Below are positions 6,343 to 62,595 of a stretch of 64,000 nucleotides of DNA, in pieces. The notes beneath the pieces are model-generated. The model did no database searches. It saw only the letters and a list, made by a program, of their open reading frames with translations, and had not been told where the DNA came from. Made by a program: the position numbers and the translations under genes. This stretch comes from Candidatus Daviesbacteria bacterium. GTDB lineage: Bacteria > Patescibacteriota > Microgenomatia > Daviesbacterales > UBA10151. The stretch spans positions 602,763 through 666,762 of the forward strand of contig JACPDA010000004.1 in the NCBI GenBank assembly GCA_016184225.1. The letters run 5' to 3'. Within the stretch, counting starts at the first letter, position 1, and each line of letters starts with the position of its first letter.

Positions 6343-6415
6343 CGCCCCTGGAAGGAATTGCACCCTCGACCCTTTCGTCCGAAGCGAAATGCTCTATCTA
6401 CTGAGCTACAGGGGC
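6343..6415 (-). tRNA. tRNA-Arg (anticodon TCG)
   Basis: Acceptor GCCCCTG/CAGGGGC, D-stem GCTC/GAGC, anticodon stem TTTCG/CGAAA with loop CTTCGGA. Confidence 0.85.
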
Positions 6416-7251
6416 ATGAGAGTATATTCTATCACTTTAAGGAGTTGCAGTGCCCCATATAAACCGCTGTCTTGATAAAGTGTAGCTTTGACTATTTCCG
6501 GAGCCTGCGGGAAAATTGTCAAGTATTCTTTAAGATAGAGTTGGACTTTTTCCAAAGGGAGAGATGCGGAAACACTGCCACCTAAGATTACGATGTCCGG
6601 GGACCAGTGAACAATTGTATTATTTAACCCTATTGCCAGATATTTTGAGATTTTATCCCAGATTGCCGGATCAGTTATATCTTCACCTTTTTGGTGATAC
6701 AGCATTGGAAAATATGTACCACTTACATATGCTTCCAGATGCCCCTTGCCGCCGCAATTACAAAGATTACCGTCAGCCACAATTATTTGATGCCCGGGTT
6801 CAAACCCTAGGCTGTTTTTGTCTATTTTTTGATCGACAATTCTGACTCCGCCTACACCAGTACCTATCCCAAGATAGGCTACAATGCTTTTTCCCCTCCC
6901 TGCCCCTTTGGTGGCTTCACCTAGTCCTACTAAGGCAGTGTCATTTTCTAGATGTACCACTACATTATAAGCTTTCTTAAGTTCTGTTTTTAGAGGTTTT
7001 TCAATCCAGTTAGGGAGTTGGGCGCTTGCTACCTGCATGGATTTCTCTTTATCCAAAGGTCCGGGTACACCACCTGCTACACCGGTGATTTTTTCTCCGC
7101 CCGACAACTCATCAGCAGTTTGTTTTAATACCAGGATGCCTTGGTTAAAATCTTGTGGAGTAGGAACGATTTTAGACTTTGTGATAGTTTCTCCGTCGTC
7201 TGAAACCCCTATCCGCATATTTGTCCCGCCGATATCAAACAAAAGAAGCAT
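6406..7251 (-). CDS. ROK-family glucokinase
   Basis: N-terminal LLFDIGGTNMRIG ATPase motif and the CNCGGKGHLE zinc motif of ROK sugar kinases. The stop codon lies inside the 5' end of tRNA-Arg. Confidence 0.75.
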   Translation of the reverse strand: MLLLFDIGGTNMRIGVSDDGETITKSKIVPTPQDFNQGILVLKQTADELSGGEKITGVAGGVPGPLDKEKSMQVASAQLPNWIEKPLKTELKKAYNVVVHLENDTALVGLGEATKGAGRGKSIVAYLGIGTGVGGVRIVDQKIDKNSLGFEPGHQIIVADGNLCNCGGKGHLEAYVSGTYFPMLYHQKGEDITDPAIWDKISKYLAIGLNNTIVHWSPDIVILGGSVSASLPLEKVQLYLKEYLTIFPQAPEIVKATLYQDSGLYGALQLLKVIEYTLMPL

Positions 7252-7360
7252 AATACCAGTTTACACACACTTTAGTTTTTTGTATAGTGCAGGCTTTCAC
7301 TATTTGACCCCAGGGTAGTAAAAGATGTATTATAAGCAACAATAGCTGCCTCAAGAATCA

Positions 7361-8605
7361 ATGAACAACCCCTTTAAAGTAGCACTTACCAACCTTGAGA
7401 TGGCCGGAAAAGCAGGCGGCATCAAGCAGGAAATAATCAACCTTTTATCTGTCCCCCAACGACAAATAGAAACCAATATTCCCTTAAAGCTTGATTCCGG
7501 AGAAATTAAACTGGTCAGGGGGTATCGGGTCCAATACAATAACTGGCGCGGTCCTTACAAAGGCGGATTAAGATACCACCCCGAGGTAGATTTAGATGAG
7601 GTGAAAGCTTTGGCATTTTGGATGACGATCAAGAATGCGGTGATCAATGTTCCTTTCGGAGGCGCTAAGGGGGGAATTGAAATTGATCCCAAGAAGCTGT
7701 CCCAAAAAGAGCTGGAACGGTTAACCCGAACTTTTGCCAGGAAACTGGCCCCTAATGTCGGCCCCAATGTAGATGTACCTGCCCCTGACGTAAATACCAA
7801 TTCCCAAACTATGGACTGGTTTGCCTCCGAATTCTCAAAAGTGATCGGGAAAAGCACGCCGGCTGTGGTAACGGGAAAATCAATTCCAAACGGAGGCTCG
7901 GAAGGCCGGATCGAGGCAACCGGTTTAGGCGGATTTTTTGTTCTGGAAGAGCTGGTTAAAAAACTGAAGCTAAAAACCCCCCTGAGGGTAGCTGTGCAGG
8001 GTTTTGGAAATGTCGGCTACCATATTGCCAAACTGCTTCAAGAAGCGGGATACAGGGTGGTTGCCTTATCTGATTCAAAAGGCGGCATCTATAATAAAGA
8101 CGGGCAGGGGTTTGACGTCGAGGATGTTAAAAATTATAAAGAAAAGAACGGCTCAATTTCGGAATACAGGCCTTCAAAAAATACAGTCAAAATAGCCAAT
8201 AAAGGAATGCCGCTGCTGCAGGTTGATATTTTTATCCCGGCAGCGCTGGAAAATGTCTTAACAGAAGAAAATGCGCCGCACATTAGTGCAAAGGTTATCC
8301 TGGAGATGGCTAATGGCCCGACAACTGATAAGGCCGACCAAATTCTGGATAAAAGAAAAATTTTGGTAGTACCGGATGTTTTAGCCAATGCCGGAGGAGT
8401 GACTGTCTCTTATTATGAATGGTATCAGAATATGAAAAACCAAATGTGGTCCAAAAAACAAGTTAATGCAAAACTTAAAAAAGCTATGGTCAACTCATTT
8501 GAGGAAATTTGGGAAATCTGCCGGACAAAAAAAATTTCCCTCCGGCTCGCTGCTTACATTTTGGCTTTACAAAGACTGTCCAAGGAAGCAACCCTTCTGT
8601 CCTAA
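7361..8605 (+). CDS. gdhA: Glu/Leu/Phe/Val dehydrogenase (glutamate dehydrogenase)
   Basis: GGAKGG catalytic-region motif and a C-terminal NAD(P)-binding GFGNVG. Confidence 0.85.
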   Translation: MNNPFKVALTNLEMAGKAGGIKQEIINLLSVPQRQIETNIPLKLDSGEIKLVRGYRVQYNNWRGPYKGGLRYHPEVDLDEVKALAFWMTIKNAVINVPFGGAKGGIEIDPKKLSQKELERLTRTFARKLAPNVGPNVDVPAPDVNTNSQTMDWFASEFSKVIGKSTPAVVTGKSIPNGGSEGRIEATGLGGFFVLEELVKKLKLKTPLRVAVQGFGNVGYHIAKLLQEAGYRVVALSDSKGGIYNKDGQGFDVEDVKNYKEKNGSISEYRPSKNTVKIANKGMPLLQVDIFIPAALENVLTEENAPHISAKVILEMANGPTTDKADQILDKRKILVVPDVLANAGGVTVSYYEWYQNMKNQMWSKKQVNAKLKKAMVNSFEEIWEICRTKKISLRLAAYILALQRLSKEATLLS

Positions 8606-8610
8606 ATTCC

Positions 8611-10446
8611 ATGAAGATTGATAAATTAAGCAAATTGGCAAAATTGTTAAGGTATTATATCCTGGTGTCTTCTTCCAGAGCCGGTTCAGGGCATCCGACT
8701 TCATCCTTGTCAGCTGTAGAGTTAATGGGGACACTGCTTTTTGGGGGCTTTTTTAGGTTTGACCTGAAAAACAAAAATAACCCCCTTAATGACCGGTTAA
8801 TCTTTTCCAAAGGCCATGCCTCTCCCCTTTATTATTCCCTTTTCACGGCGGCAGGTGCCATTACCAAAGCAGAACTCATGACTCTCCGGAAATTCGGCAG
8901 CAGATTAGAAGGCCACCCGACCATGGAATTTCCTTACACAGAGGTGCCAACAGGTTCCTTAGGCCAGGGTTTGTCAGCCGGTTTAGGCATGGCTTTGGTC
9001 AGCAAATACCTGGATAAAAGTAATTTCCGGACTTTTGTGCTCTTGGGGGATTCTGAAATGGCAGAAGGGTCTGTCTGGGAAGCTATACAGATAGCTGCTT
9101 TTTACAAGCTGGATAATTTAGTGGCCATCCTGGACGTAAACAGACTGGGACAAAGCCGGGAAACCATGCTCGGCCATGATGTTTCAAGCTACAAAAAAAA
9201 GCTGGAAGCCTTTGATTGGGAAGCAATTGTTATTGACGGCAATGACCTAAAACAGGTGACGGCGGCTTTTGAGAAAGCCTTAAAAGTGAAGGGTAAGCCG
9301 GTAATGATTATTGCCAAAACCTTTAAAGGCAGTGGTATATCATTTTTGGAAAATAAGGAAAACTGGCACGGCAAAGCCCTGGGTGAAAAGGATCTGAGTC
9401 TGGCATTGGGAGAATTGGGCCCGATAAATAAAAAGCTGCGCGGAAAAATTAATTTGCCCCGAAAGGCAGCTCTGAAAAAACAACCTGTCACCTATAACCT
9501 GAAACCTGTAACCTATTCCTTGGGCGAAACCATTGCCACCAGAAAAGCTTATGGTAATGCCCTAATTAGGCTGTTTCCCAAATACCCTGATATGGTAGTC
9601 CTGGACGGGGAAACCAGCAATTCTACTTACTCGGAATTTTTTGCCAAGGCGTATCCTGAGCATTTTTTTGAGATGTTTATTGCCGAACAAAACATGACCG
9701 GGGTGGCTCTTGGCCTGGCCAGGCTGGGTAAAATTCCCTTTATTTCCACTTTTGCCGCCTTTTTTACCAGAGCATATGATCAGATCAGAATGGCCCAATA
9801 TGCTGATACCAATATCAAGTTTTGCGGATCCCATGCCGGAGTATCTATCGGTGAGGACGGTTCCTCCCAAATGGGATTGGAGGATATCGGAATGTTCCGA
9901 TCGCTTTTGGGGAGCGTGGTGTTATACCCTGCTGATGCTGTATCCTGCGAAAAGCTGACTGAGGAAGCTATCAAGCATAAAGGAGTGGTTTATTTGAGAA
10001 CCACCAGGAAAGAAACACCGACTCTTTATAAAGCCAATGAAAAATTCCCCATAGGAGGCAGCAAGGTGGTTCGCAAAAGTAAGTCAGATCAGGTGACAGT
10101 GGTAGGGGCCGGCATTACGCTGCATGAAGCCTTAAAAGCCTATGACCTACTGAAAGCTAAAGGTATCTCCATCCGGGTCATTGATTTGTATTCTGTTGCC
10201 CCACTGGATTTAAAAACTTTAAAGCAGGCTGCTAAGGAAACAATGGCTGTTATTACTGTTGAAGATCATCATGCGGCAGGGGGAATAGGGGAAGCTGTGG
10301 CAGCTGCGCTGTCAGGAACAGGAAAGCCGGTACACATTATGGCAGTTACCAAAATGCCGCATAGCGGCAAGCCGGATGAGCTGCTGGAATATGAAGGTAT
10401 CTCTGCATCAGCTATTTACTCTAAAGTAAAAAAAGTGATAGTGTAA
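8611..10446 (+). CDS. tkt: transketolase
   Basis: Thiamine-diphosphate motifs (SSRAGSGHPTSSLS, GDSEMAEG) and pyrimidine-binding and C-terminal domains. ATG at 8611 follows the gdh stop directly; the longer ORF from 8509 overlaps gdh. Confidence 0.85.
   Translation: MKIDKLSKLAKLLRYYILVSSSRAGSGHPTSSLSAVELMGTLLFGGFFRFDLKNKNNPLNDRLIFSKGHASPLYYSLFTAAGAITKAELMTLRKFGSRLEGHPTMEFPYTEVPTGSLGQGLSAGLGMALVSKYLDKSNFRTFVLLGDSEMAEGSVWEAIQIAAFYKLDNLVAILDVNRLGQSRETMLGHDVSSYKKKLEAFDWEAIVIDGNDLKQVTAAFEKALKVKGKPVMIIAKTFKGSGISFLENKENWHGKALGEKDLSLALGELGPINKKLRGKINLPRKAALKKQPVTYNLKPVTYSLGETIATRKAYGNALIRLFPKYPDMVVLDGETSNSTYSEFFAKAYPEHFFEMFIAEQNMTGVALGLARLGKIPFISTFAAFFTRAYDQIRMAQYADTNIKFCGSHAGVSIGEDGSSQMGLEDIGMFRSLLGSVVLYPADAVSCEKLTEEAIKHKGVVYLRTTRKETPTLYKANEKFPIGGSKVVRKSKSDQVTVVGAGITLHEALKAYDLLKAKGISIRVIDLYSVAPLDLKTLKQAAKETMAVITVEDHHAAGGIGEAVAAALSGTGKPVHIMAVTKMPHSGKPDELLEYEGISASAIYSKVKKVIV
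9484..9518 (+). repeat. 5 tandem heptamers CCTGTAA-like, in frame in tkt
   Basis: cctgtca cctataa cctgaaa cctgtaa cctattc. Encodes the tandem 7-aa repeat QPVTYNL KPVTYSL. Confidence 0.7.
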
Positions 10447-18489: not shown

Positions 18490-18565
18490 TGGGGTGGCTG
18501 AGGGGAGTTGAACCCCCCACATTCTGTTCCACAAACAGACGCTCTACCGCTGAGCTACAGCCACC
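18490..18565 (-). tRNA. tRNA-His (anticodon GTG) with genome-encoded G-1 and CCA
   Basis: Acceptor GTGGCTG/CAGCCAC preceded by an extra 5' G, anticodon stem TCTGT/ACAGA with loop TTGTGGA. CCA is encoded. Confidence 0.85.
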
Positions 18566-18623
18566 ATAGACTCAAAGTCTACCACATACAGCTTTCGCTC
18601 ACAAATACATATTACTTCGTACT

Positions 18624-19298
18624 TTAGCCTTCCACACCGGGTGTGGAATCGTAAACGTCATCCAGTTGGTGATGCTTAAGTATTTCTAGCTCCATTCCAT
18701 AATCCACCTGAGCTATTACGAATTTTTCGTAGTCTTTTGAATTTTTAAATAACCCCAAAACTATATCTGGAACACATATTATTGGTTTTATTAAATATTC
18801 CTGATAAGAAGACCAAGGGTATTTGTCTATACTTTTAATTAGTTTAGAAACTACCGGATTTAGATGGATATACCGGGATACGTGTACTAATTGTTCATCA
18901 TTTTCAATCCTAACGGCCTTAAACCTATTTTGCCATAACGGACCAACCCGGTTATATTTAGTATTGAAATACTTAGAATAACTATTACAAAACTGCTGAA
19001 TAAAACGACTAGCCCCATTATCTTGTAATTGCCTGATCAAGAAGTGAAAATGGTTGGGCATAAGGCAATATCCGATAATTTCAACATATTTCTTGTCGGA
19101 AATTGGTTTTGAAAAATTTAATTTTGCTTTGCTAAAAAAAGAGAACTTGGGCTTCTTGCCGGAAAACTGATAATAGTAAAATGTTTTTCTGAAACGGTCA
19201 TAATCTCTTGGCTGAAGAAAAATATCTCGCTTTTCACTTCCTCTGTTAAAAAGGTGGTAAATCTCTCCTGTTATAATTGGTGATGTTCTTCCGGGCAT
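18624..19298 (-). CDS. tnpA: IS200/RAYT-like Y1 tyrosine transposase
   Basis: YCLMPNHFHFLI HuH motif and the downstream catalytic Tyr region (VSRYIHLNPV). Paralog of the 43244..43915 gene. The true start is probably M53 (MPGRTSPIITGEIYHLFNRG); the longer ORF to 19454 runs through the terminal hairpin. Confidence 0.7.
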   Translation of the reverse strand: MPGRTSPIITGEIYHLFNRGSEKRDIFLQPRDYDRFRKTFYYYQFSGKKPKFSFFSKAKLNFSKPISDKKYVEIIGYCLMPNHFHFLIRQLQDNGASRFIQQFCNSYSKYFNTKYNRVGPLWQNRFKAVRIENDEQLVHVSRYIHLNPVVSKLIKSIDKYPWSSYQEYLIKPIICVPDIVLGLFKNSKDYEKFVIAQVDYGMELEILKHHQLDDVYDSTPGVEG

Positions 19299-19345
19299 AT
19301 CTTCTACTTTAGCTTTCCACACCCGAGGTGTCAACCTATGGCCCT
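18628..19345 (-). mobile_element. IS200-like insertion sequence (about 720 bp, single Y1 transposase, subterminal hairpins)
   Basis: Hairpin TTCCACAC-CGG-GTGTGGAA at 18630-18648 and TTCCACACCCGAGGTGTCAACCT at 19315-19340, in the same orientation, flank tnpA. The size matches IS200. Confidence 0.5.
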
Positions 19346-19368: not shown

Positions 19369-19512
19369 TCCTTAGAGAACCTGTCAATATCGGTCTTGCG
19401 ACTGATAAAGAAACTTTTTGTCTTACGACTGAAGTTTTTAACAGGTTTAATCACTTTACATCAGCGAATATACTCTGTCAACTGGGACAAAACGGATCAA
19501 AATATAGCAAAA

Positions 19513-21639: not shown

Positions 21640-23097
21640 ATGCGAAGCATACTACATATTGACTTCAATTCTTATTTTGCTTCTGTTGAACAACAGGCAA
21701 ATCCCCGGCTGCGGGGTAAACCAATTGGTGTTACAGGTGGGGATAGGATGCACAGGACAGTTTTGGGTGCAGCTTCAATAGAAGCCAAAAGGTTTGGTGT
21801 TAAAACCGGGATGCAGATTTGGGAAGCCAGGAAGCTTTGTCCACAAATTATCCTGGTGCCAGGAGATTCGGATAAGTATTTGGAGATAACTAAACGCTTT
21901 TTAAGTATTTTAAAAGACTACAGCCCTGCCCGCATTGCTTCGTCCACCAGTAACGCTTCGCGTAACGATGCGGACTGGCAAAGCGATGCAGGCGGGCCAT
22001 ATTTGGAGGTTTTTTCTATTGATGAATGTTTTTTAGAATTGGTGAATACTTCAGTCGGCAGCCCCGCTCTCTTGCTCGCTAACGCAAGCGTCCTGCGGTC
22101 CGATATGGATCGGACCTCGGATACGCTCGTCTTCGACTCGTCTAGAGCTTGCTGCGTTCGGAGGCAGCCTCCTTCTGCTACAGAGATTGCTTTTGATATT
22201 AAAAGTAGAATCCGGACTGAAATAGGCGAATACATTACCTGTTCTATTGGCATCTCTTACAATAAACTGATGGCCAAACTGGCTGGATCTTTACAAAAGC
22301 CTGATGGTCTGGTAATCATTCCCAACCAGGAAGAGGCGATTAAAGTTTTAGACAAAATAGAACTGGATGAAATTTGCGGCATCGGGCCAAGGATTAAGAA
22401 AAGGTTAAACAACTTAGGAGTATTTAATTTTTACCAGCTAAGGCAAGTTCCTTTAGAAAGCTTACTGGCTGCCTTTAAAAGCTATGGTCAGATCCTTTAT
22501 AACATGGCCAGGGGTATTGACCATTCACCTGTAGTGCCTTTTTACCAAAAAGAAGAAGTAAAAAGTATCGGTCACAGACATACTATAGATCATGATACTG
22601 CCGACCCAAAAGAGATAAAACAAATTCTACTCAAACTGTCTGAGATGGTAGCCAGAAGACTCAGGGCTAAAAGATTGGTTGGCAAAACCATCCATTGCTG
22701 GTATCGGGAAGCATTCTACTCCCGATTCCACCTGGAAGGTGAAAAAATGCAGCTACACCTTCCAGGTGAGTTTAATGGTAACAGCATGCAAATGACTATT
22801 CTCTATACCAATGATGGTTTGGATATCTTTAAAGCTGCCTGGAAAATTTTTCATCAGATCTGGAATACGGAAAAAATTAGGATGGTTGGTATCTCCATCT
22901 CCAACCTTAAACCCCAAACCCCGCAAAATTTAAGTTTTTTGCCTGAAGAGCAAAGAAAAGAGATAATCACCAAAGCTTTGGATAAAATTAATGACAGATA
23001 CGGTGAATTTACCCTGCAACGCGGCATCCTGCTTCAATCTGCTTCCATCAAAAGAAAGCCCAACCCCTTCCTAGCTGACAGAAGATTCAGACTTTAG
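21640..23097 (+). CDS. dinB: DNA polymerase IV (Y-family) with two GC-rich in-frame insertions
   Basis: ILHIDFNSYFASVEQ, FSIDECFLEL, SIGISYNKLMAKLA and C-terminal little-finger motifs. 485 aa, against about 350-400 typical. Confidence 0.8.
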   Translation: MRSILHIDFNSYFASVEQQANPRLRGKPIGVTGGDRMHRTVLGAASIEAKRFGVKTGMQIWEARKLCPQIILVPGDSDKYLEITKRFLSILKDYSPARIASSTSNASRNDADWQSDAGGPYLEVFSIDECFLELVNTSVGSPALLLANASVLRSDMDRTSDTLVFDSSRACCVRRQPPSATEIAFDIKSRIRTEIGEYITCSIGISYNKLMAKLAGSLQKPDGLVIIPNQEEAIKVLDKIELDEICGIGPRIKKRLNNLGVFNFYQLRQVPLESLLAAFKSYGQILYNMARGIDHSPVVPFYQKEEVKSIGHRHTIDHDTADPKEIKQILLKLSEMVARRLRAKRLVGKTIHCWYREAFYSRFHLEGEKMQLHLPGEFNGNSMQMTILYTNDGLDIFKAAWKIFHQIWNTEKIRMVGISISNLKPQTPQNLSFLPEEQRKEIITKALDKINDRYGEFTLQRGILLQSASIKRKPNPFLADRRFRL

Positions 23098-23114: not shown

Positions 23115-24065
23115 ATGAGAATTATTGTTACCGGCGGAGCCGGATTTTTAGGTTCACACCTTTGCGACAAGTTAATTGAAAGAGGAGACCAGGTAATTGC
23201 CATAGACAACTTGTTAACCGGCAGTCCAAACAATATAGCCCATTTGCAAAACAGCCCTGACTTCCAGTTTATAGAAGCTGATGCTAACGCAGCTTTGCCC
23301 GAGGATCTGGATTTTGATCAACTTTACCACTTAGCTTCCCCTGCCTCCCCTAATAAAAATAACGCTCAAAGCTATATGGCTTTGCCTTTTGAAACCATGC
23401 AGGTAAATTCCTTTGGAACCTGGAGTCTGTGTGAAGAAGCCCTTGCCCGGGGGGCTAAGTTTCTATTTGCTTCTACCTCTGAAACTTACGGTGACCCCCT
23501 GGAACACCCTCAAAAAGAAAGCTATCGGGGCAATGTTTCTACCACCGGCCCCAGGTCTGTTTATGATGAATCCAAAAGATTCGGCGAAACTATCACTTCT
23601 GCTTTTATCCGCCATCAAAGGTTGGACGGCAAGATGGTCCGGATTTTTAACACCTATGGACCCAGGATGTCTTCTGACGGCAGGGTGGTGATTGAATTTG
23701 TTCGGGCAGCCCTACAAAATAAGCGCTTCCCTGTATTTGGTGACGGCAAACAAACCAGATCTTTCTGCTATGTGTCTGACTTGGTAGACGGGATCATAAC
23801 CGTTATGGATAAGGGTGAGAAAGGTGAGGTATACAACCTGGGAAACCCCAAAGAATTTACAATTTTGGAACTGGCTGAGGTTGTAAAAAAGCTAACAGGG
23901 GCGAATTCGGAAGCTGAATTTGTGGAGAACTTGCCGGAGGATGACCCGGCCCGGCGCTGCCCAGATATTACTAAAGCCAGAGGATTGGGCTGGGAGCCTA
24001 AAATAGGGCTGGAAGAGGGTTTAAAGAAATTAATTGTACATCTGCAAACAATGAAGACACCCTAG
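23115..24065 (+). CDS. NAD-dependent epimerase/dehydratase, UDP-glucuronate decarboxylase (UXS)-like
   Basis: TGGAGFLGSHL Rossmann motif, YDESKR (YxxxK) and extended-SDR layout similar to UXS/ArnA-type decarboxylases. Confidence 0.7.
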   Translation: MRIIVTGGAGFLGSHLCDKLIERGDQVIAIDNLLTGSPNNIAHLQNSPDFQFIEADANAALPEDLDFDQLYHLASPASPNKNNAQSYMALPFETMQVNSFGTWSLCEEALARGAKFLFASTSETYGDPLEHPQKESYRGNVSTTGPRSVYDESKRFGETITSAFIRHQRLDGKMVRIFNTYGPRMSSDGRVVIEFVRAALQNKRFPVFGDGKQTRSFCYVSDLVDGIITVMDKGEKGEVYNLGNPKEFTILELAEVVKKLTGANSEAEFVENLPEDDPARRCPDITKARGLGWEPKIGLEEGLKKLIVHLQTMKTP

Positions 24066-24189
24066 GTGACTGCCTAATCCACCCCCCAGGTGAATTTTGC
24101 TAAATAGATCTCAAATTGATAGAATACTCACAGTTGCACATTGACATCTGAACTGGCAAATAATGTATACTAATTGCATAGGTCTTAAT

Positions 24190-25504: not shown

Positions 25505-25527
25505 GATTACACCCTTGGGGTGTAATC
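25505..25527. repeat. REP-like hairpin GATTACACCC-TTG-GGGTGTAATC
   Basis: Same family as 31978-32000 and 35808-35834. Confidence 0.7.
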
Positions 25528-25554: not shown

Positions 25555-25573
25555 GATTTTGGGTTCTAAGAAA

Positions 25574-25617
25574 GGGTGTCAACCTAATACACCCTCCGGG
25601 TGTAAAGCTGTAAAGCT
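25574..25617. repeat. REP-like element GGGTGTCAACCTAATACACCCTCCGGGTGTAAAGCTGTAAAGCT
   Basis: Near-identical to the right end of the IS200-like element at 43949-43985. Confidence 0.7.
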
Positions 25618-31977: not shown

Positions 31978-32000
31978 GATTACACCCCAGGGGTGTAATC
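31978..32000. repeat. REP-like hairpin GATTACACCC-CAG-GGGTGTAATC
   Basis: Same family as 25505-25527, about 12 nt from the tRNA-Pro 3' end. Confidence 0.7.
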
Positions 32001-32011
32001 AAGACTTTATG

Positions 32012-32083
32012 TCGGGGACCAGGGAATTGAACCCTGTGCTTCTCGCTCCCAAAGCGAGCGTTCTACCGATGAACTAGTCCCCG
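32012..32083 (-). tRNA. tRNA-Pro (anticodon TGG)
   Basis: Acceptor CGGGGAC/GTCCCCG, D-stem GTTC/GAAC, anticodon stem CTCGC/GCGAG with loop TTTGGGA. Confidence 0.85.
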
Positions 32084-32282: not shown

Positions 32283-32951
32283 ATGTCAAACACAAAGAAA
32301 AAAATATTCTTTTTAGCACTTTTCTCTATAATCGGTTTTTTAAGCCTTCAGATCCCTTTTAATAAAATAGCCGGTTCAAATGTATCTTTTACCCTGTTTG
32401 ATTTCTTTGGCCCCATTGCAGGAGCTTTCTTGGGGCCAGTCTTCGGAATAGCTTCGGTGTTGGGAGTAGAACTGATTAATTTATGGATCAAAAATGCGCC
32501 GCTTACCACCGGCTCTATAATCAGGTTATTCCCAACCCTGTTTGCAGTGTTGTATTTTGCTCTGGCTTCCAAAAAAACATTTCAGGGCAGGTGGATACTG
32601 GCAGTTCCCATTCTCTGTATCCTGGCATTTATAGCTCACCCGATCGGCAGGCAGGTTTTCTATTATGCACTAATGTTTTGGACTATTCCGGTATTCGCAT
32701 ATCTTAAAAAGGATAACCTTTTTATAAGGGGGTTAGGGGCAACTTTTACGGCCCATGCTGTTGGCGGAGCAGCCTGGATTTGGGCATTTAATCTGCCTGC
32801 AGCAATCTGGACTGGACTTATCCCGACAGTGATAGCCGAAAGACTACTATTCGCAACAGGCATAGCCGCATCTTACATTGTACTCAAGCATACTCTTGAC
32901 TTACTGACTTCTAAAAAGATCCTGCCGAAGCTGGATTTCATTTCTTCTTGA
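32283..32951 (+). CDS. polytopic membrane protein (ECF S-component-like?)
   Basis: Six predicted TM helices. ATG at 32283; the longer ORF starts at 32181, next to the tRNA. Confidence 0.4.
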   Translation: MSNTKKKIFFLALFSIIGFLSLQIPFNKIAGSNVSFTLFDFFGPIAGAFLGPVFGIASVLGVELINLWIKNAPLTTGSIIRLFPTLFAVLYFALASKKTFQGRWILAVPILCILAFIAHPIGRQVFYYALMFWTIPVFAYLKKDNLFIRGLGATFTAHAVGGAAWIWAFNLPAAIWTGLIPTVIAERLLFATGIAASYIVLKHTLDLLTSKKILPKLDFISS

Positions 32952-33592
32952 TGCTTTATCCAAATCTTAAATTCCCAAAACGAACAGACAGGCCCTTTTT
33001 TTACACTAATTTTGTTTCCACTGTTGACGGTAAGGTTCAAGTTTTAGAAAACACTATGGATTACTGGCCAATAGGGAGCAAGACCGATTACAAGGTCATG
33101 CTGGAGCTACGGGCATACGCCGATTGCCTTATCCATGGTAAAAATTTAGCTAAGGAATTTGGTGAAATTACCCTAAATAGCTTAAATAAAAATTCTTTTA
33201 AAAAGATGCGGCAGAAGCTAGGAAAGGATCCCATCCTGCCATACTTTATCTTATCCGGCAAGCCTGAAACATTAGAAAAGTCCCTAGGTGCCAAGCTAAT
33301 CCACCTCCCAGGTGGGAATCTGCAAGAATTGGTCAAACTTCTCCAGGAAAAAAAGTACAAACATATTTTAGTAGAAGGGGGACCAACACTACTGGGCTCC
33401 TTCTTAAAAGAAAACCTCATTGATGAAATATTTTTAACAATTGCCCCAAAAATATTTGGCAGCACTAGGGGAATAACATTAACCCTGGTTGAAGGCTATT
33501 TATTCCCCAAAAATGCCACTAAAAACCTAAGCCTTCTATCAATAAAAAAGCTCAGTTCCGAAATTTACTTACGTTACAAAGTAAGAAAGTAA
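32948..33592 (+). CDS. RibD C-terminal / dihydrofolate-reductase-family protein
   Basis: FFYTNFVSTVDGKV, ILVEGGPTLLGSFL and DEIFLTIAPKIFG pattern of the DHFR-like reductase domain. Confidence 0.55.
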   Translation: MMLYPNLKFPKRTDRPFFYTNFVSTVDGKVQVLENTMDYWPIGSKTDYKVMLELRAYADCLIHGKNLAKEFGEITLNSLNKNSFKKMRQKLGKDPILPYFILSGKPETLEKSLGAKLIHLPGGNLQELVKLLQEKKYKHILVEGGPTLLGSFLKENLIDEIFLTIAPKIFGSTRGITLTLVEGYLFPKNATKNLSLLSIKKLSSEIYLRYKVRK

Positions 33593-35246: not shown

Positions 35247-36935
35247 ATGTGGGTAAAAATACTCCTTTTATTTTTTGTTTTTTCTTTCCTTTTCCGGACT
35301 GATGATTCATTTAACCAGGACCTAGGCAGGCATCTTAAACTGGGGGAAATTATCCTCCAAACTAAAAATATTCCCCTGACTAACCTTTTCTCCTATACCT
35401 ATCCGGATTACCCATTTATTAACAGCCACTGGTTATTTGAAGTTCTAGTTTATCTGGGCCGGCAGACAATTGGCCTACCGGCACTACTTTTTTTAAAAGT
35501 AGCCATTATTTTACTGGCTGTCTGGCTGGTTTTAAAAACTATACCCAAAAACCAATATTTGCTTTTACCTGTGGGTTTTCTTTTTCTGCATACCTTAAGG
35601 GAGCGGCCGGACCTTAGACCGGAAGTCCTAAGTTTTCTCTTTACCGGGCTGACTGTTTATATTTTAAGTAAATTTGATCAGGCAAAAAGCAAGCTAATCT
35701 TTTTTTTGCCGGTTATCCAACTCGTCTGGGTCAATAGCCATATCTATTTTATGTTAGGCTTGTTTCTACAGGCTATTTATCTGATCCACCTGGGGTACCA
35801 ATACTCACGATTACACCCCAAGGGTGTAAAGCTGAAAATGCTGGGGATAATTTTCTTATTATCGGTTACAGCCAGTTTAATCAATCCCAGCGGCCTCAAA
35901 GGCTTCCTAAACCCCCTGACTTTTAATCAAAACTACGGCTATACCATTGTGGAAAACCAGACCATGTTTCTTTTGGAAAGCATTAACTTCCGGGACCCTA
36001 ATTTTTTGTTTGTCAAGATTGCCATAGCCATTATTTTACTTTCAGTTTTTGTAGCCCTATTCAAGAAAGGATTAACAATAAAGAATCTGGGTCTGGCCGG
36101 TCTAGGCATGGCGTTGGCTTTAATGAATGTCAGGAGCTTTCCTTATTTGGCTTTAATCTCACTTCCGCCGGTGCTGGAAAATTTTGGAACTTTCCGTTCC
36201 GCCGGCCTGCCTAAAATGCTGATTTGGGTGACAGTACCGCTGCTGCTTTTGGAAAGCTTTTTTTACCTAAACGGGGATTATTATAAATATACCGGCAGCG
36301 CGACCAGGCCGCTGCTTCAATTTGAAGAAAATGGTAAAGGCGCCCTGGATTTTGTTTTAAGAAATAATTTGCCCCAGCCGATTTTTAATAATTTTGACAT
36401 CGGCAGTTACATTACCTACCGGGGGTGGCCTGCCTCGCCGCAAGGCGGGCCAAAATACCGGATCTTTGTGGACGGCAGGCCAGGGGAGTACCCTAAGGAA
36501 TTTTTTCAGCAAATTTATATCCCTGCCCAATATGAGCCGCAGAAATTTGCCGAACTTGACCAAAAATTCGGATTTAAAACCATTATTTTTTCGATAACCG
36601 ACCAGACCCCCTGGGGACAGGCATTTTTGGCCTCAATAGTTAAAAACCCTCAGTGGAAAACAGTGTACCTGGATCACTTTATAATAGTGCTTATAAAAAG
36701 TGAGCTAGCCCTGCAGGACGAGGCCCGGGAGCCTATTAACCTGGCCAAGTTGAATCCGGCTGATTATAACCTTGACTTTTACCTACAATATCTCAGGTTA
36801 TCATTGTTTCTAGCCCAGGTGGGCTATCCGGAAGCAGCCCAAAAATTTGCCAGGGCCGGGTTGCTACTTTTCCCCCAAAGCCCGCTTGGAAATGCCCTGT
36901 TCGGAATTGAAGTCAGGAATAATTACTTCTGGTGA
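35247..36935 (+). CDS. large polytopic membrane protein (GT-C-like glycosyltransferase?)
   Basis: At least 10 TM helices and a C-terminal TPR-like soluble domain. Contains an in-frame REP-like hairpin at 35808-35834. Confidence 0.35.
   Translation: MWVKILLLFFVFSFLFRTDDSFNQDLGRHLKLGEIILQTKNIPLTNLFSYTYPDYPFINSHWLFEVLVYLGRQTIGLPALLFLKVAIILLAVWLVLKTIPKNQYLLLPVGFLFLHTLRERPDLRPEVLSFLFTGLTVYILSKFDQAKSKLIFFLPVIQLVWVNSHIYFMLGLFLQAIYLIHLGYQYSRLHPKGVKLKMLGIIFLLSVTASLINPSGLKGFLNPLTFNQNYGYTIVENQTMFLLESINFRDPNFLFVKIAIAIILLSVFVALFKKGLTIKNLGLAGLGMALALMNVRSFPYLALISLPPVLENFGTFRSAGLPKMLIWVTVPLLLLESFFYLNGDYYKYTGSATRPLLQFEENGKGALDFVLRNNLPQPIFNNFDIGSYITYRGWPASPQGGPKYRIFVDGRPGEYPKEFFQQIYIPAQYEPQKFAELDQKFGFKTIIFSITDQTPWGQAFLASIVKNPQWKTVYLDHFIIVLIKSELALQDEAREPINLAKLNPADYNLDFYLQYLRLSLFLAQVGYPEAAQKFARAGLLLFPQSPLGNALFGIEVRNNYFW
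35808..35834. repeat. REP-like hairpin CGATTACACCCCAAGGGTGTAAAGCTG inside a CDS
   Basis: Family member in frame, encoding SRLHPKGVKL. Confidence 0.65.
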
Positions 36936-36940
36936 TATTC

Positions 36941-36992
36941 CCTACGGTGTGTGGGTATCCCACACCAGGGGTGGGTTAGGTTGACACCGTAC
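36941..36992. repeat. REP-like element in reverse orientation between convergent genes
   Basis: GTGTGGGTATCCCACAC hairpin plus GGTGGGTTAGGTTGACACC, the reverse complement of GGTGTCAACCTAA. Confidence 0.6.
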
Positions 36993-36995
36993 TTC

Positions 36996-41491: not shown

Positions 41492-43156
41492 GTGAGAAAG
41501 ACTACATTAATCCTAGGCTTAATTATTTTAATTTCCGCTTTTCTTCGCTTTTATCAGATTGACAAAAATCCCCGGGCCATGTACGGAGACAGCTTAACCG
41601 GAGTTTATGATGCATATTCAATCCTAAAAACCGGCCATGACCAAAAAGGAAATTTCCTGCCTCTGGTTTTTTCGCTGGGTGGAGGCAGGCCAGGGGGTTA
41701 TATCTATGCCAGCGCCCCTTTCGTGGCCATATTTGGCCCCAATGCCCTGGCATCCCGAATGGTTTCAGTGTTATCCGGCATAGGCATAGTCATTCTGCTT
41801 TACCTACTGGGCAAGAAGCTGCTTTCCGAAAAGGCTGGCCTGGCCATAGCTGGAGTAGCTGCCATAAACCCCTGGGAGCTTAGTTTAAGCAGGGGGCCAT
41901 TTGAAAGTCATTTTGCTTTATTTTTAACCTTACTGGGAGTATATTCCTTTTCCCGGGGTTTCAAAAACAATTTTTGGTTTATCCTGTTCGGTCTGTCTTT
42001 TGGACTGGCTTCCCAAACATATTCAACATACCGGCTGACAATCCCGTTACTGACTGCCTTATTGTTATTTTTTTATCTTCCCACATCCGATGTGGGAACA
42101 CGTTTTAAGGTTATGAATTACCTGAAAAAACCTGTCCTTTTTGTCTCTATAATTTTTATACTGGTTTCTACGCTTTTAAGCGTTTACTCAACAGTCAGCC
42201 GGGGGAGCGAGGACAGGTTCGGTATTATTAATATCTTCCAGAACCAGGATATCCGCACTGCCATTTCCCAAAAAATAAGGAATGAAAGATCGCTTGACAG
42301 TCTGCCCCCGGCTATTTCAAACCCTCTCCATACCCCTCATCTGGAACTGGCTGGTATTGTGGCTCTAAATTACATTCAAAATTTCCTGCCGGACTTTCTG
42401 TTTTTGCATGGAGACGGCCAGGTCAGACACAACCCGGCTGAGATGGGAGGATTTTTCTGGGTAGATATCCTCTTTTTAATCATCGGGTTGGTTTACCTAT
42501 ATAAATCAGATAAAAAATTGTTGGCATATCTTTTCGGATGGATTCTTATTGCCCCCAGTGCTACCGGCCTGGTGGGCGGGCCGCACGCTTTAAGAAGCTC
42601 ACTGCTTCTGCCTCCGCTTTTGATCTTAACAGGCATCGGCCTCTCTAGATTATTAAGTATTAAAAACAAGTTCTCCCCGGTAATCATTGCATTACTGGCT
42701 ACTTTATTTTTAATCCAGTTTGTTTATCTTGTGGACAGGTTTTACTTTGTGGCCCCCCAAAAAAATGCCCGCTTTTGGTCTTATCCGGCAAAAGAGGCAG
42801 TAACTTTAGCTTTAAAAAACCAGCAAAAATTTGATTACATAATCTTATCCAATGACATAGATAATATGGAGTTTGCATATCCGGCTTATGCAAAATTGGA
42901 CCCGATCCTGGTCATCAGGCAAAACCAACATCCTGCCACATTAGGGGAGTTTAAATTCTTTAAGTATGATAATGTTTATATCGGCTCACTCCCTAATACC
43001 CGGGTAGCAGAGTTTATTAAGAATCTGCCGGGTTCGGTTTTGTATATCGGCTCTGACAAAGAACAGCAATTTTTAGAAAATTACAGTCTCATCAGGGGTT
43101 TTGATACCTTACCGGATTTGGTAGTTACGGCCACCAAGGTCGAGCCGGAACTATAG
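41492..43156 (+). CDS. GT39/GT83-like membrane glycosyltransferase (ArnT/PMT family)
   Basis: N-terminal YGDSLTGVYDAYS loop motif and polytopic layout. Confidence 0.5.
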   Translation: MRKTTLILGLIILISAFLRFYQIDKNPRAMYGDSLTGVYDAYSILKTGHDQKGNFLPLVFSLGGGRPGGYIYASAPFVAIFGPNALASRMVSVLSGIGIVILLYLLGKKLLSEKAGLAIAGVAAINPWELSLSRGPFESHFALFLTLLGVYSFSRGFKNNFWFILFGLSFGLASQTYSTYRLTIPLLTALLLFFYLPTSDVGTRFKVMNYLKKPVLFVSIIFILVSTLLSVYSTVSRGSEDRFGIINIFQNQDIRTAISQKIRNERSLDSLPPAISNPLHTPHLELAGIVALNYIQNFLPDFLFLHGDGQVRHNPAEMGGFFWVDILFLIIGLVYLYKSDKKLLAYLFGWILIAPSATGLVGGPHALRSSLLLPPLLILTGIGLSRLLSIKNKFSPVIIALLATLFLIQFVYLVDRFYFVAPQKNARFWSYPAKEAVTLALKNQQKFDYIILSNDIDNMEFAYPAYAKLDPILVIRQNQHPATLGEFKFFKYDNVYIGSLPNTRVAEFIKNLPGSVLYIGSDKEQQFLENYSLIRGFDTLPDLVVTATKVEPEL

Positions 43157-43186
43157 TAGAATTCTTATCCCGTGAAGTCTTAATTT

Positions 43187-43995
43187 AGGTTTACACCCGG
43201 AGGGTGGTATAGCTTTACACCTGTTCTTTCATTCATTAAAATATCATTCAAAAGTTAGATGCTTGATAGCTTCCAACTGTTTCCCATAGTCTATTTGATT
43301 ATTAACAAATTCCTGATAGGCTTTTATTGTTTTGAACATGCTCAAAATTAAATCTGTCTGCGATATTTCCAGGTTGGATAAAGATAAATATTCCGGATAG
43401 GATGACCACTGATAACTCTCCAGCTTATCATCCGGTATCACACCGGAAGCCACCGGGTTTAGGTGGATGTACCTGGAGACATGAACCAGCTGCTCATCAC
43501 TTTCAATATGAACCGCCTTAAAAACACCCTCAAATAAGGGCCCTGTTCTTTCATATTTGGTATTAAAATATTTAGTATAAGCGTTTGTAATATTGGAGAT
43601 AAAAGAGGAGATCCCTTTATCTGTGTTTTGTTTAAGCATAAAATGGAAATGGTTGGGCATCAGGCAGTAACTTAGGATATCTACCGCTCTTTCACTCTTA
43701 TAAAGAGCAGCCAGTAACTTCTCTCTGATCTCTTCAGGTTGCTGGATAACCTGGGAAAACCTGACCGGGATATCCTTGTGCCTATAGAATTTGACCAGCT
43801 TCTGCATCCTTTCAAATTCTCTTTTTTCCGTAAATGTAGTCCTTCTTTCTATTCCTCTATTAAATATATGATAGATCTCGCCCTCTCGAAACACCAACTT
43901 TCTAAGTGTGGCCATAAATATATCTTAAACATAATAGAGAAAGGGTGTCAACCTAAAACACCCGGAGGGTGTATGGGTGGGTGTATGGGTAATAG
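43187..43995 (-). mobile_element. IS200-like insertion sequence (about 810 bp) with subterminal hairpins
   Basis: TTTACACCCGGAGGGTGGTA at 43191-43210 and GGGTGTCAACCTAAAACACCCGGAGGGTGTATGG at 43949-43982 flank a single Y1 transposase gene in the same orientation. Confidence 0.55.
43244..43915 (-). CDS. tnpA: IS200/RAYT-like Y1 tyrosine transposase
   Basis: YCLMPNHFHFML HuH motif and the downstream catalytic Tyr region (VSRYIHLNPV). Strong similarity to the 18624..19298 paralog. Confidence 0.75.
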   Translation of the reverse strand: MATLRKLVFREGEIYHIFNRGIERRTTFTEKREFERMQKLVKFYRHKDIPVRFSQVIQQPEEIREKLLAALYKSERAVDILSYCLMPNHFHFMLKQNTDKGISSFISNITNAYTKYFNTKYERTGPLFEGVFKAVHIESDEQLVHVSRYIHLNPVASGVIPDDKLESYQWSSYPEYLSLSNLEISQTDLILSMFKTIKAYQEFVNNQIDYGKQLEAIKHLTFE

Positions 43996-44089
43996 TAATA
44001 ATTCAGAAAACAGCATTTACAATTCAGGCTTTTTAGCTAAAATTAATAAGGACTGGAAAAAGGGGGAAGTCTATGATAAGTTAGGATGC

Positions 44090-61269: not shown

Positions 61270-62595
61270 ATGGGGTATAATTTCTCCATGCGTTTACTCT
61301 TTGCAATTCTGTTAGGCAAGTTGATTACCTATCTGACAAGGATTCTCAAAATCGGTGGTGGTTCTGCTGCGCCCGGTTTATATGCCTTAAAAATATACCC
61401 TTCCCTGGTTGAAAAGTTAAGCAAACGTATCCCCAAAAGTGTGGTCATCACCGGCACCAATGGTAAAACCACCACTGCCAAAATGCTGGCCCATTTTGCT
61501 ACAGCTTCCGGATTAAAAGTAATAAGAAACCACACCGGTTCAAACTTGGAAAGGGGAATAGCCTCTACATTGATCCACGGTGTGAGCCTATCCCACCCCT
61601 GGGGTGGGATGAATAGACACCTCGGGATTTGGGAGTTGGATGAAGCGGCTTTTAATGCGGTTGCGCCTAAGCTAAGCCCGGATGTGATTGTCTTTTTGAA
61701 TGTCTTCCGGGACCAGCTGGACCGCTACGGGGAGATCAATACTGTTCTCAAGAACTGGCAGGAAACACTAAAAAAGATCCCTTCCGGCACCAAAGTTTTA
61801 GTAAATGGTGACGATGCTAATATTTTGAGACTGGCCACTAGTTTTAGAGGTAAAGTCCAAAAATTTGGGGTTAAGGATTATAAGATTGTAGGGGAGGGCA
61901 TTGTCCACAAAAAAGAACAAGAAAACCTCGATTTCGAAGCTAAAGATGTCAAATTAGATGGCTTGAACAGTTCCAGTTTTATTCTCCAAACTACCAACTA
62001 CCAACTACCAACTACCTTACCATTACCAGGCATTTACCACATTTATGATTCTCTGGCAGCCTTTGCCTGCGCATTTAATCTGGGGTTACCAGTCAACCAA
62101 TTCACTAATTCTCTGATTCACTATACACCTGCTTTCGGCAGAGTAGAAAAATTAGGCTTTGGGTATATTTTCCTGATCAAAAACCCGGCCGGAGCTACCC
62201 AGGTTTTTGAAACTATAGCCCCCAACTTAAAACCCACTGATACTCTGCTTTTGGCTTTAAATGACAACATAGCAGATGGAACCGACGTATCCTGGATCTG
62301 GGATGCGAATTTTGAAGTACTTCAAAATTCGTCCCGAGCGAAGTCGAGGGACCTCAAATTATATGTTTCAGGCTCAAGAGCCTATGAACTGGCTGCCAGG
62401 CTCAAATATGCCGGTTTTGATCCTAAAAATATTACCGTGGACCCGAACCTTAAAAATGCTTTCAGACAGGCTAGAAGGAATCTAAAAGGGCAGTTATTCA
62501 TCCTGCCTACCTATACAGCTATGCTGGAATTGCAGTCTATTTTAGCCAAATCTGGTATTAAGAAACATTATTGGGAGGAGGAAGATAGAGTCTAG
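61270..62595 (+). CDS. murT: lipid II isoglutaminyl synthase subunit MurT (Mur-ligase-like)
   Basis: VVITGTNGKTTT Mur-ligase P-loop and C-terminal DUF1727-like domain. Immediately followed by gatD. Confidence 0.8.
   Translation: MGYNFSMRLLFAILLGKLITYLTRILKIGGGSAAPGLYALKIYPSLVEKLSKRIPKSVVITGTNGKTTTAKMLAHFATASGLKVIRNHTGSNLERGIASTLIHGVSLSHPWGGMNRHLGIWELDEAAFNAVAPKLSPDVIVFLNVFRDQLDRYGEINTVLKNWQETLKKIPSGTKVLVNGDDANILRLATSFRGKVQKFGVKDYKIVGEGIVHKKEQENLDFEAKDVKLDGLNSSSFILQTTNYQLPTTLPLPGIYHIYDSLAAFACAFNLGLPVNQFTNSLIHYTPAFGRVEKLGFGYIFLIKNPAGATQVFETIAPNLKPTDTLLLALNDNIADGTDVSWIWDANFEVLQNSSRAKSRDLKLYVSGSRAYELAARLKYAGFDPKNITVDPNLKNAFRQARRNLKGQLFILPTYTAMLELQSILAKSGIKKHYWEEEDRV
61991..62018 (+). repeat. CTACCAA heptamer array (3 exact units plus degenerate units), in frame in murT
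   Basis: ctaccaa ctaccaa ctaccaa ctacctt, encoding TTNYQLPTTLP. Confidence 0.65.

Follow-up and report, generated by a model that had tools for sequence, protein, structure and literature searches.

We found that a 64,000-nucleotide stretch of the genome of Candidatus Daviesbacteria, a tiny-genome groundwater bacterium of the Patescibacteria or candidate phyla radiation (CPR), carries two genes for Y1 transposase-like proteins (here referred to as gene A and gene B) together with a dispersed family of short DNA hairpins. The stretch corresponds to positions 602,763 to 666,762 of contig JACPDA010000004.1 (assembly GCA_016184225.1) and is called the window throughout. These components probably make up a system of the REPtron/TIRtron type, in which resident class-2 Y1 nucleases are paired with co-evolving hairpin units, some of which have been copied to other sites. 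The argument is built on the fold and motifs of the proteins, the anatomy of the units, an architecture with locus-specific hairpins that recurs across the protein family, synteny and slow divergence of the genes, enrichment of the hairpins, one filled/empty site, and one compensatory change. An earlier note on this DNA had read the genes as IS200 elements, with a system resembling repetitive extragenic palindromes (REPs) and REP-associated tyrosine transposases (RAYTs) as the alternative. It is the alternative that held up, given intact Y1 enzymes of the HUH (histidine-hydrophobic-histidine)/tyrosine kind, cognate hairpins, and a dispersed, partly in-frame hairpin family, while the IS200 reading is unsupported in view of class-2 motifs, 47% identity between the two copies, vertical descent, and synteny with a PMT_2 gene.

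Two RAYT-like Y1 proteins

Both open reading frames (ORFs) that had been proposed as tnpA genes are present on the minus strand, and both of their products contain the motif YCLMPNHFHF. The Pfam Y1_Tnp domain was matched at 47 bits by the gene A protein and at 39.7 bits by the gene B protein (cut-off, 23). In an alignment of 21 homologues, the HUH residues H89 and H91 and the tyrosine Y149 were invariant; the catalytic tyrosine, whose absence would have counted against the earlier note, is thus in place. The motifs in this alignment read NHFH, YIHLNP, and WSS, with LWQ in gene A or LFE in gene B, and YIHLNP, a class-2 Y motif (Y---NP), is likewise invariant. An AlphaFold2 model of the gene B protein (pLDDT 82) has a helical tail that closes with a long helix (residues 197 to 221). 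The top PDB match of this model was Escherichia coli TnpA_REP bound to REP (4er8_A; E 9e-7, target TM 0.70), with the TnpA proteins of IS608 and ISDra2 ranking behind it in Foldseek (E 1e-4 to 1e-3). At E <= 0.01, the A and B proteins matched no NCBIfam family except REP_Tyr_transpos, so no IS200-family transposase model matches them. Their C-terminal tails gave no Pfam match of any kind even at E <= 10, including to a distal helix-turn-helix (HTH)-like domain (Bac_DnaA_C, HTH_23/HTH_28), and a PHROGs search returned weak matches of unknown function and nothing else.

According to Table 1 of Quentin et al. 2018 (PMC6006769), class 2, the RAYT type, is marked by Y---NP. Its subclass 2.1 has NH[YF]H, W[EQ] or FQ, Y[IV]HLNP, a proximal SS tail motif, and a median length of 238 amino acids (aa) (PMC6006769), and it corresponds to the Group 1 RAYTs of Bertels et al. 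2017 (PMC5581495) plus most of the terminal inverted repeat (TIR)-associated tyrosine transposases (TIRYTs) of Di Nocera et al. (PMC3733652). IS200 proper (subclass 1.1) has DH[VI]H, Y[IV]ENQ (Y---Q), a core-only protein of ~150 aa, and multiple near-identical copies (PMC6006769). The A and B proteins fit predicted class-2 TnpA_Y1 HUH/tyrosine single-stranded DNA endonucleases of the RAYT/TIRYT type, nearest to subclass 2.1 (Group 1 RAYT), an assignment made by comparing motifs with that Table 1.

The ATG of gene A at 19298 agrees with the N termini of its orthologues, and a longer GTG ORF, reaching 19454, reads through the upstream hairpin unit. At its other end, the last seven codons and the stop codon of gene A lie inside the downstream unit, whose hairpin encodes STPGVEG with the stop just after. 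The gene B product is identical to a Candidatus Daviesbacteria database protein annotated "transposase."

Low copy number and vertical inheritance

Homologues of gene B, each of ~223 aa and almost all of them single-contig sequences, form a smooth gradient from 83% down to 57% identity. The nearest relative of gene B is 83 to 84% identical, and the nearest relative of the MurT protein encoded in the same window is 77% identical; gene B therefore diverges no faster than MurT. In two related loci, L094 (gene B 83% identical) and L089 (75%), the Y1 gene is convergent to an orthologue of the window PMT_2 gene (77% and 70% identical, respectively), with one to a few extra genes between the two. Close relatives of gene A retain a 424-aa neighbor within 8 kb, and two diverged Y1 paralogues occur in several related loci. 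Four relatives of a further group, here referred to as C-type, have common upstream sequence with ATTCTAGCAAA-like motifs (found by eye), which suggests a common neighbor. On these comparisons, we take genes A and B to be low copy, vertically inherited, and old, a pattern that is that of RAYTs and not of insertion sequences (ISs); our counts of copy number and dispersal cover the 64-kb window.

Locus L101 is syntenic with the window (Fic, ORF35247, TerC, S41, PMT_2). In the comparison of its positions 6370 to 8700 with window positions 41492 to 43915, its PMT_2 gene is followed directly by SIMPL, with no Y1 gene there.

A composite hairpin unit frames each gene

To define the unit, we made one alignment of four solo units of the window and the sequences on either side of B-type genes, both in the window and in nine related loci. 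The consensus, AGAAAGGGTGTCAAGCTAAnC-CACCY-nnn-RGGTGG, describes a composite of ~40 nt: a 13-nt box (consensus GGTGTCAAGCTAA), the first five bases of which copy the 3' arm of the hairpin, and then the short G+C-rich hairpin CACCY-N3-RGGTG itself. The stem covaries, with 18 double-change cells and a score that 0/500 shuffles reached; at stem position 30-34, C:G and T:A are exchanged in eight sequences.

B-type genes have inverted units in which the box is the part closest to the gene; matches of the covariance model fell on the minus strand for the upstream unit and on the plus strand for the downstream one. A-type and C-type genes have direct units, which are sometimes identical (42/42 nt in locus L014 and 33/33 nt in locus L022). 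The downstream unit of gene A is a direct repeat of the tail of its upstream unit (DNA fold, -7.1 kcal/mol; z -3.2), and its upstream architecture is the same as that of the A-type orthologues L022 to L024 and L028. The claim that each gene is bracketed by hairpins of the same orientation therefore stands for gene A; for gene B it is true of the loop only, since the composite unit is inverted (43937 to 43977 on the plus strand, 43188 to 43228 on the minus strand). Read on the plus strand, the gene B hairpins at 43194 to 43206 and 43959 to 43971 are both CACCC-GGA-GGGTG, and those of gene A are TTCCACAC-CGG-GTGTGGAA at 18630 to 18648 and ACACC-CGA-GGTGT at 19319 to 19331. Loop orientation proved inconsistent among orthologues and was for that reason not used as a strand marker. 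The 13-mer was said often to follow the hairpin; on the plus strand it precedes it at 25575 and 43944 and overlaps the 3' arm at 19327.

Both upstream units contain a TTGACA hexamer at -36 to -31 from the ATG, and a -10-like hexamer follows 17 to 18 nt on, ending 7 to 8 nt before the ATG. For gene B this promoter-like site reads TTGACA (43951 to 43946, minus strand), 18 nt, and TAAGAT, with 10/12 matches and the ATG 7 nt on; the site in the gene A unit also has 10/12 matches, and the TTGACA position of -36/-35 recurs in gene B orthologues. It is a reasonable inference from these positions that the upstream unit supplies the promoter of its gene; because the -10-like hexamer ends so close to the ATG, the mRNA would be leaderless.

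Two further features of the units were recorded. On the minus strand at 43943 to 43963, the ACACCC within the TTGACACCC box and the main hairpin's 3' arm make up an alternative 7-bp hairpin, GGGTGT-N7-ACACCC, which overlaps with the gene B -35 hexamer and precedes a T-rich run. In many related loci (e.g., L018, L035, and L044), the 5' arm is partly repeated behind TTG.

The hairpin is a partner of this protein clade

We compared the upstream and downstream flanks of 86 homologous loci from many Patescibacteria lineages, with proteins 32 to 77% identical to gene B. In 76 of them, the repeat common to both flanks scored above the 95th percentile of non-cognate pairs (median scores, 20 for cognate and 8 for non-cognate pairs). 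The stems are locus specific (CACCC, TAACC, CAACC, ACGATC, CACACAC, AAGGTC, and others) yet match within a locus, and covariance-model matches in the related loci are concentrated at the flanks of the Y1 gene. The match on both flanks combined with locus-specific stems indicates that the hairpin is a conserved, evidently co-evolving partner of this Y1 protein clade. In contrast, Quentin et al. reported no REP-like hairpins adjoining subclass 2.1 genes (PMC6006769).

Dispersed units in the window

The exact core CACCC-N3-GGGTG occurs 7 times in the window, compared with 0.02 to 0.025 expected. The relaxed form CACCY-N3-RGGTG occurs 11 times (0.13 expected), as does the core with one mismatch (1.2 expected; 0/100 shuffles reach 11), and the 13-mer GGTGTCAACCTAA has 8 matches at <=2 mismatches (1.2 expected). 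The shuffles rule out a chance origin of the hairpins, and the lack of enrichment that the earlier note had named as grounds for abandoning the family was not seen in the window, where 7 exact cores stand against 0.02 expected. Family members were also among the longest G+C-rich hairpins of the window in an unbiased list of perfect hairpins. Hairpins were present at every coordinate previously claimed, and the count of 9 family members rises to ~14 with the units at 61572 to 61628, 33280 to 33320, and 24058 to 24098, the doublet at 22729 to 22768, and the hairpin at 42078 to 42098 (Table 1). Matches at 23148, 4633, 4713, and 55334, all inside genes, were judged to be chance.

A covariance model, R1, was run with filters off; six window units were in its training set, and 24058, 25506, 31977, and 35810 were not. 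It recovered full units at 25568 (plus), 43937 (plus), 43188 (minus), 36955 (minus), 33280 (plus), and 61572 (plus, double-footed) and, weakly, at 24058 (plus). Members at 25506, 31977, and 35810 were matched as hairpin only, and those at 22725/22756, 19320, 18627, and 42078 were weaker. An Rfam scan returned tRNAs only and no family for the units.

At least ten units lie away from the two Y1 genes, and 8 of the 14 units fall in the non-genic 12% of the window (P = 7e-5). Among the solo intergenic units, 5/6 adjoin the 3' end of a gene, four of them separating convergent genes and the fifth next to tRNA-Pro, in agreement, within the window, with the clustering at gene 3' ends that the earlier note had proposed checking. 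The tRNA-Pro gene adjoining the hairpin at 31978 to 32000 occupies 32011 to 32083.

One pair of loci gives a filled and an empty site: the 60-nt spacer that holds the unit at 36939 to 36995 corresponds to 7 nt in the syntenic locus L101. These two sequences have diverged too far for the junctions to be located or a target-site tetranucleotide to be derived. At 32/36 positions, the solo unit at 25568 to 25605 agrees with the upstream unit of gene B, with the loop flipped (TCC versus GGA). This likeness is the sole sign of recency, and it is a hint; recent mobilization of the copy at 25574 to 25617, as previously suggested, is not demonstrated. Other Daviesbacteria species have these stems too, with intragenic copies in orthologous positions, and the similarity may therefore reflect constraint and not recent copying. 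The sequence comparisons point to units that persist for a long time rather than spreading recently. Concerted evolution of all units in the genome is unsupported, with CACCC, CACCT, CACAC, and CACAT stems coexisting.

The 10-bp GATTACACCC stems form a subfamily of their own. We scanned metagenome contigs by pattern for a cognate Y1 gene; six contigs matched, and in none did the hairpin adjoin a Y1 gene. The C-type relatives L031 and L039 have flanks reading TTTACACCC-TTG-GGGTG, and on this basis a third Y1 paralogue, cognate to the GATTACACCC subfamily, is possible elsewhere in the genome. A 10-bp hairpin of the form GATTACACCC-CAA-GGGTGTAATC was found at 19472 to 19494 of locus L093, inside a pheT-like gene of another Daviesbacteria genome. 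The same hairpin lies in frame, encoding GLHPKGVIV, in a Mur-ligase-like ORF of two metagenome contigs (L098, 4869 to 4891; L099, 8121 to 8143), at a site unlike that of the window MurT.

Table 1. Y1 genes and hairpin units of the window
Feature	Position	Strand	Details
Gene A, RAYT/TIRYT-like Y1 HUH-Tyr gene	18624-19298	minus	224 aa, 47% identical to B
Gene B, RAYT/TIRYT-like Y1 HUH-Tyr gene	43244-43915	minus	223 aa
Gene A upstream unit	19303-19340	-	TAGGTTG-ACACC-TCG-GGTGT-GGAAAGCTAAAGTAG; TTGACA 19334-19329, TAAAGT
Gene A downstream unit, overlaps gene 3' end	18616-18652	-	ACGATTCCACAC-CCG-GTGTGGAAGGCTAAAGTA; direct-repeat score 14.5
Gene B upstream unit	43937-43977	+	R1 49.3 bits; box GGTGTCAACCTAA 43944-43956, hairpin ACACCC-GGA-GGGTGT 43958-43972
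Gene B downstream unit, inverted versus upstream unit	43188-43228	-	R1 45.3 bits; hairpin 43194-43206, box GGTGTAAAGCTA 43221-43210
Degenerate solo unit	24058-24098	+	Co-directional spacer; R1 17.1 bits, E 3e-4
Solo 10-bp hairpin GATTACACCC-TTG-GGGTGTAATC	25505-25527		Convergent spacer; -9.0 kcal/mol, z -4.4
Solo composite unit	25568-25617	+	Convergent spacer of 25505-25527; R1 51.5 bits, z -3.5; hairpin 25588-25604
Solo 10-bp hairpin GATTACACCC-CAG-GGGTGTAATC	31978-32000		Between gene 3' end and tRNA-Pro; z -4.6
Solo double-footed unit	36939-36995	-	Fills 60-nt convergent spacer; R1 41.6 bits
In-frame inverted doublet CACCTGGAAGGTG...CACCTTCCAGGTG (FHLEGEKMQLHLPGE)	22729-22768	+	DinB-like polymerase; like a REP doublet forming a hairpin (REPIN)
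In-frame composite unit GAKLIHLPGGN	33280-33320	+	ORF 32948-33592, RibD_C-like by eye; R1 41 bits
In-frame hairpin unit SRLHPKGVKL	35808-35834	+	Loop of membrane protein, ORF 35247-36935
In-frame hairpin TTCCCACAT-CCG-ATGTGGGAA	42078-42098	+	PMT_2; membership tentative; weak R1 match, E 0.5
In-frame double-footed unit HGVSLSHPWGGMNRH	61572-61628	+	MurT variable loop; R1 38 bits (+), 29.9 bits (-); -13.5 kcal/mol, z -2.9

In-frame copies in protein-coding genes

The in-frame copy at 35808 to 35834 was confirmed as previously described, and it has company elsewhere in the window. All in-frame copies with a CACCY stem are read as CAC-CYN-NNN-GGT-G, giving His-(Pro/Leu)-x-Gly; the PMT_2 hairpin, a tentative member from another stem subfamily, is read in a different way. 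Several of the in-frame copies fall in loops that are on the protein surface or join helices. Relative to known or orthologous proteins, several of these copies are insertions. The DinB doublet is a 13-aa insertion compared with PDB entry 7yll and forms a 13-bp stem (-14.5 kcal/mol, z -5.7); the PMT_2 hairpin adds 4 to 7 aa compared with the L101 and L089 orthologues, and MurT has five more residues than Streptococcus pneumoniae MurT at its unit. Orthologues of MurT carry different unit variants at this one site, among them RLHPKGVKLN in P0190, encoded by TTTACACCCCAAGGGTGTAAAGCTAAA. At the site in ORF35247, most Daviesbacteria orthologues have R-[LSF]-H-[PLI]-x-G-x-K-L, which is missing in a few distant ones. 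The L101 orthologue of this ORF has the hairpin CACCT-CGA-AGGTG in place of the CACCC/GGGTG of the window, a compensatory C:G-to-T:A change of the stem within coding sequence.

MurT orthologues (window gene, 61270 to 62595) have four to five hypervariable sites (alignment columns 101 to 125, 250 to 270, 319 to 347, and 400 to 450). The peptides found there are often palindrome-like and differ among close relatives, examples being TTNYQLPTT, LIINHKSLIIN, NPTSHRTPTSEV, and SLRAPAKQS...APRND. Daviesbacteria genomes may in general be prone to the insertion of repeats in frame.

The DinB-like polymerase (ORF 21640 to 23097) also has ~65 extra residues around its SIDE(C)FL motif compared with 7yll (21931 to 22180). 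The extra DNA is G+C rich and includes imperfect palindromes at 21925 to 21978 and 22097 to 22116, and its peptide ...ASRND... resembles the ...APRND inserts of MurT orthologues. This insert may represent a second, unrelated in-frame repeat family.

Proposed mechanism and alternative explanations

In the explanation that we favor, genes A and B each belong to a REPtron/TIRtron-like cassette that has copies of the ~40-nt composite unit on both sides. By analogy with E. coli TnpA_REP and with the IS608 and ISDra2 TnpA proteins, the Y1 protein would bind its cognate hairpin on transiently single-stranded DNA, and cleavage and rejoining beside the hairpin would proceed through an HUH-bound metal and Tyr149. 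Units would occasionally be copied, deleted, or replaced in trans, with the genes themselves staying put. DNA binding, cleavage, and mobilization in trans are what we infer from these analogies.

Several observations weigh against this explanation. The scores of the two proteins against the NCBIfam equivalog REP_Tyr_transpos (NF047646), 52.1 and 69.7 bits, are under its cut-off of 80, and the hairpin foot lacks the canonical GT[AG]G guide tetranucleotide of E. coli-type RAYT systems and has instead a 13-nt box that repeats the 3' arm. The gene-flanking hairpins are short (5 to 6 bp), and their stability does not exceed that of shuffled sequence (z -0.4 to -1.6). Within 20 kb, most related loci show the two flanking copies and no others; the extent of dispersal is thus modest and differs from one genome to another. 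The orthologous sites of intragenic copies in different species and the mixture of stems within this genome argue for very low current mobility. The 5' neighborhood of gene B differs among orthologues, with strict synteny on the PMT_2 side only, and the PMT_2 neighborhood of L101 is without gene B; the cassette thus shows presence/absence among Daviesbacteria.

The best of the alternatives, which we nevertheless consider unlikely, is that the Y1 proteins are fully domesticated and the units are fixed, selected host sites for a process such as replication-fork processing, recombination, or gene regulation, with no mobility left. The MurT and ORF35247-family hairpins, which keep orthologous positions across many Daviesbacteria with a compensatory stem change, would fit such a role, as would the presence of the 10-bp stem GATTACACCC in other species, the vertical inheritance and slow evolution of the Y1 genes, and the putative promoter embedded in the unit, which suggests autoregulation. 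However, gains or losses are evident from the filled/empty spacer and from the in-frame insertions that PMT_2 and DinB have in particular lineages, the same MurT site holds different unit subfamilies in different genomes, copy number varies widely among related loci, and the neighboring genes indicate no host function.

Somewhat less probable still is that A and B are two autonomous ISs of the IS200/IS605 family, with subterminal hairpins at the left and right ends, in which a 0.7- to 0.8-kb element moves by peel-and-paste and the solo hairpins resemble palindrome-associated or miniature inverted-repeat transposable elements (PATEs or MITEs) or are excision footprints. The proteins do have the Y1 HUH fold, the units around gene A and its C-type relatives are direct and in the L014 and L022 loci identical, the hairpin loops at both ends of gene B are co-oriented, and the differing 5' neighbors of gene B orthologues and its absence beside PMT_2 in L101 could be read the same way. 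Yet the Y motif is YIHLNP and not Y---Q, the HuH motif is NHFH, the 223- to 224-aa proteins carry a ~70-aa tail, and their NCBIfam matches at E <= 0.01 are limited to REP_Tyr_transpos. The two copies are 47% identical, and near-identical ones appear nowhere in the protein database; orthologues diverge as slowly as MurT, and the position beside PMT_2 has been kept. The composite units around gene B are inverted, so both cannot be read on one strand, and there is no tnpB. The fit of the element sizes to IS200, noted earlier, is simply a consequence of gene length.

A very improbable alternative is that the hairpins are unrelated to the Y1 genes lying between them and serve as ordinary terminators or stabilizers in transcription or on mRNA. 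In its favor, 5/6 solo intergenic units are at gene 3' ends, the stems are G+C rich, and REPs of other bacteria act on mRNA (PMC3733652). Against it, most units have no T-tract after them, the Y1 gene always has one unit on its 5' side at a fixed distance, the hairpin differs from one Y1 lineage to the next yet is the same on the two flanks in 76/86 loci, and there are in-frame copies inside genes and no Rfam family match.

Going beyond the REPtron/TIRtron-type explanation, we also entertain a speculative and rather improbable extension of it. Here, a vertically inherited RAYT-like enzyme would maintain a small population of units, tolerated and preserved as hairpins, in loops of essential proteins (e.g., MurT, DinB, and PheT) across Patescibacteria, read as His-Pro/Leu-x-Gly and with sites re-occupied by other variants in other lineages. 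The HUH enzyme would target and replace existing units. If true, this would give extremely reduced genomes an inbuilt source of loop variation and would overturn the view of subclass 2.1 enzymes as lacking hairpin partners.

Comparison with known systems

The TIRYT/TIRtron group (PMC3733652; subclass 2.1, PMC6006769; Group 1, PMC5581495) has much in common with the window system: NH[YF]H, Y[IV]HLNP, W[EQ]/FQ, and an SS tail motif in proteins of ~220 to 240 aa, low copy number with roughly 49% identity between intragenomic copies, inverted repeats of ~36 to 40 nt at fixed distances that are partly self-complementary (gene B), and a moderately abundant repeat family. Unlike that group, the window proteins have no distal HTH-like tail detected by Pfam, the TIR motif GGGGWSAS is approximated, but not matched exactly, by the gene-proximal (A)GGGTGTCAAG, the A- and C-type repeats are direct, and the host belongs to the Patescibacteria. 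Unlike subclass 2.1 of Quentin et al., the hairpin here is the conserved core of the flanks (76/86 loci).

E. coli-type RAYT/REPtron systems (TnpA_REP, 4ER8; subclasses 2.2 and 2.5) provide the best structural match and the Y---NP motif. There, too, a single-copy, vertically inherited gene has cognate palindromes on its flanks, with others dispersed chiefly at the 3' ends of genes; one genome can hold several distinct RAYT/REP pairs, and the inverted doublet at 22729 to 22768 is REPIN-like. In contrast to them, and apart from the missing GT[AG]G, the window proteins fall below the NCBIfam equivalog cut-off and have an extra C-terminal helical tail, copy density is far under the hundreds seen in Pseudomonas or E. 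coli, and the gene promoter appears to lie inside the unit. With IS200/IS605 elements (IS608, ISDra2, and IS200; subclass 1.1) the system has in common the HUH/Tyr Y1 fold, end hairpins, the direct arrangement at gene A, and a similar size; it differs in Y motif, length, copy number, divergence between copies, vertical inheritance, the lack of tnpB, and the inverted units of gene B.

Rickettsia palindromic elements (RPEs) are palindromic repeats tolerated in frame in loops of housekeeping proteins. As with RPEs and with the REPs that Di Nocera et al. 2013 (PMC3733652) list inside genes, the window has in-frame palindromes in such loops, including those of replication/repair genes (here DinB). 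Compared with RPEs, its units are far shorter (20 to 57 nt, 7 to 15 aa) and are read in one fixed frame (H-P/L-x-G), are linked to a resident Y1 gene, and are kept at orthologous sites with compensatory stem change.

To our knowledge, RAYT/REP systems are a textbook long-term-resident transposase family, studied almost entirely in Proteobacteria. In the literature that we searched, no description of such a system in Patescibacteria was found, one preprint mentioning a KEGG annotation only. In-frame REPs and TIR-flanked RAYT genes are already known elsewhere (PMC3733652). The system is thus of a known kind, in a lineage and protein subclass for which it does not seem to have been described before. 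Within the least understood subclass (2.1, reported without REPs), a large clade has a clear cognate hairpin, and the simple anatomy of the unit (box, hairpin, and putative built-in promoter) suits oligonucleotide biochemistry. The genomes concerned are <1 Mb in size, so that any gene kept in them calls for a functional explanation. A natural experiment on selection for DNA or RNA structure versus peptide is offered by the in-frame copies in essential genes, with the hairpin kept at orthologous sites. For annotation, these Y1 genes should not be counted as IS200 or taken as signs that mobile elements were recently active in CPR genomes.

Neighboring features

The gene A 3' unit is directly adjoined by tRNA-His (18490 to 18564). 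Upstream of gene B, GGGTGTATG occurs twice in tandem after the hairpin (43973 to 43995). A 106-aa gene called from the ATG at 43973 overlaps this tandem; a start at the ATG at 44089 (MKRAVYLGFLILLFPKPAHA, signal-peptide-like) is more plausible.

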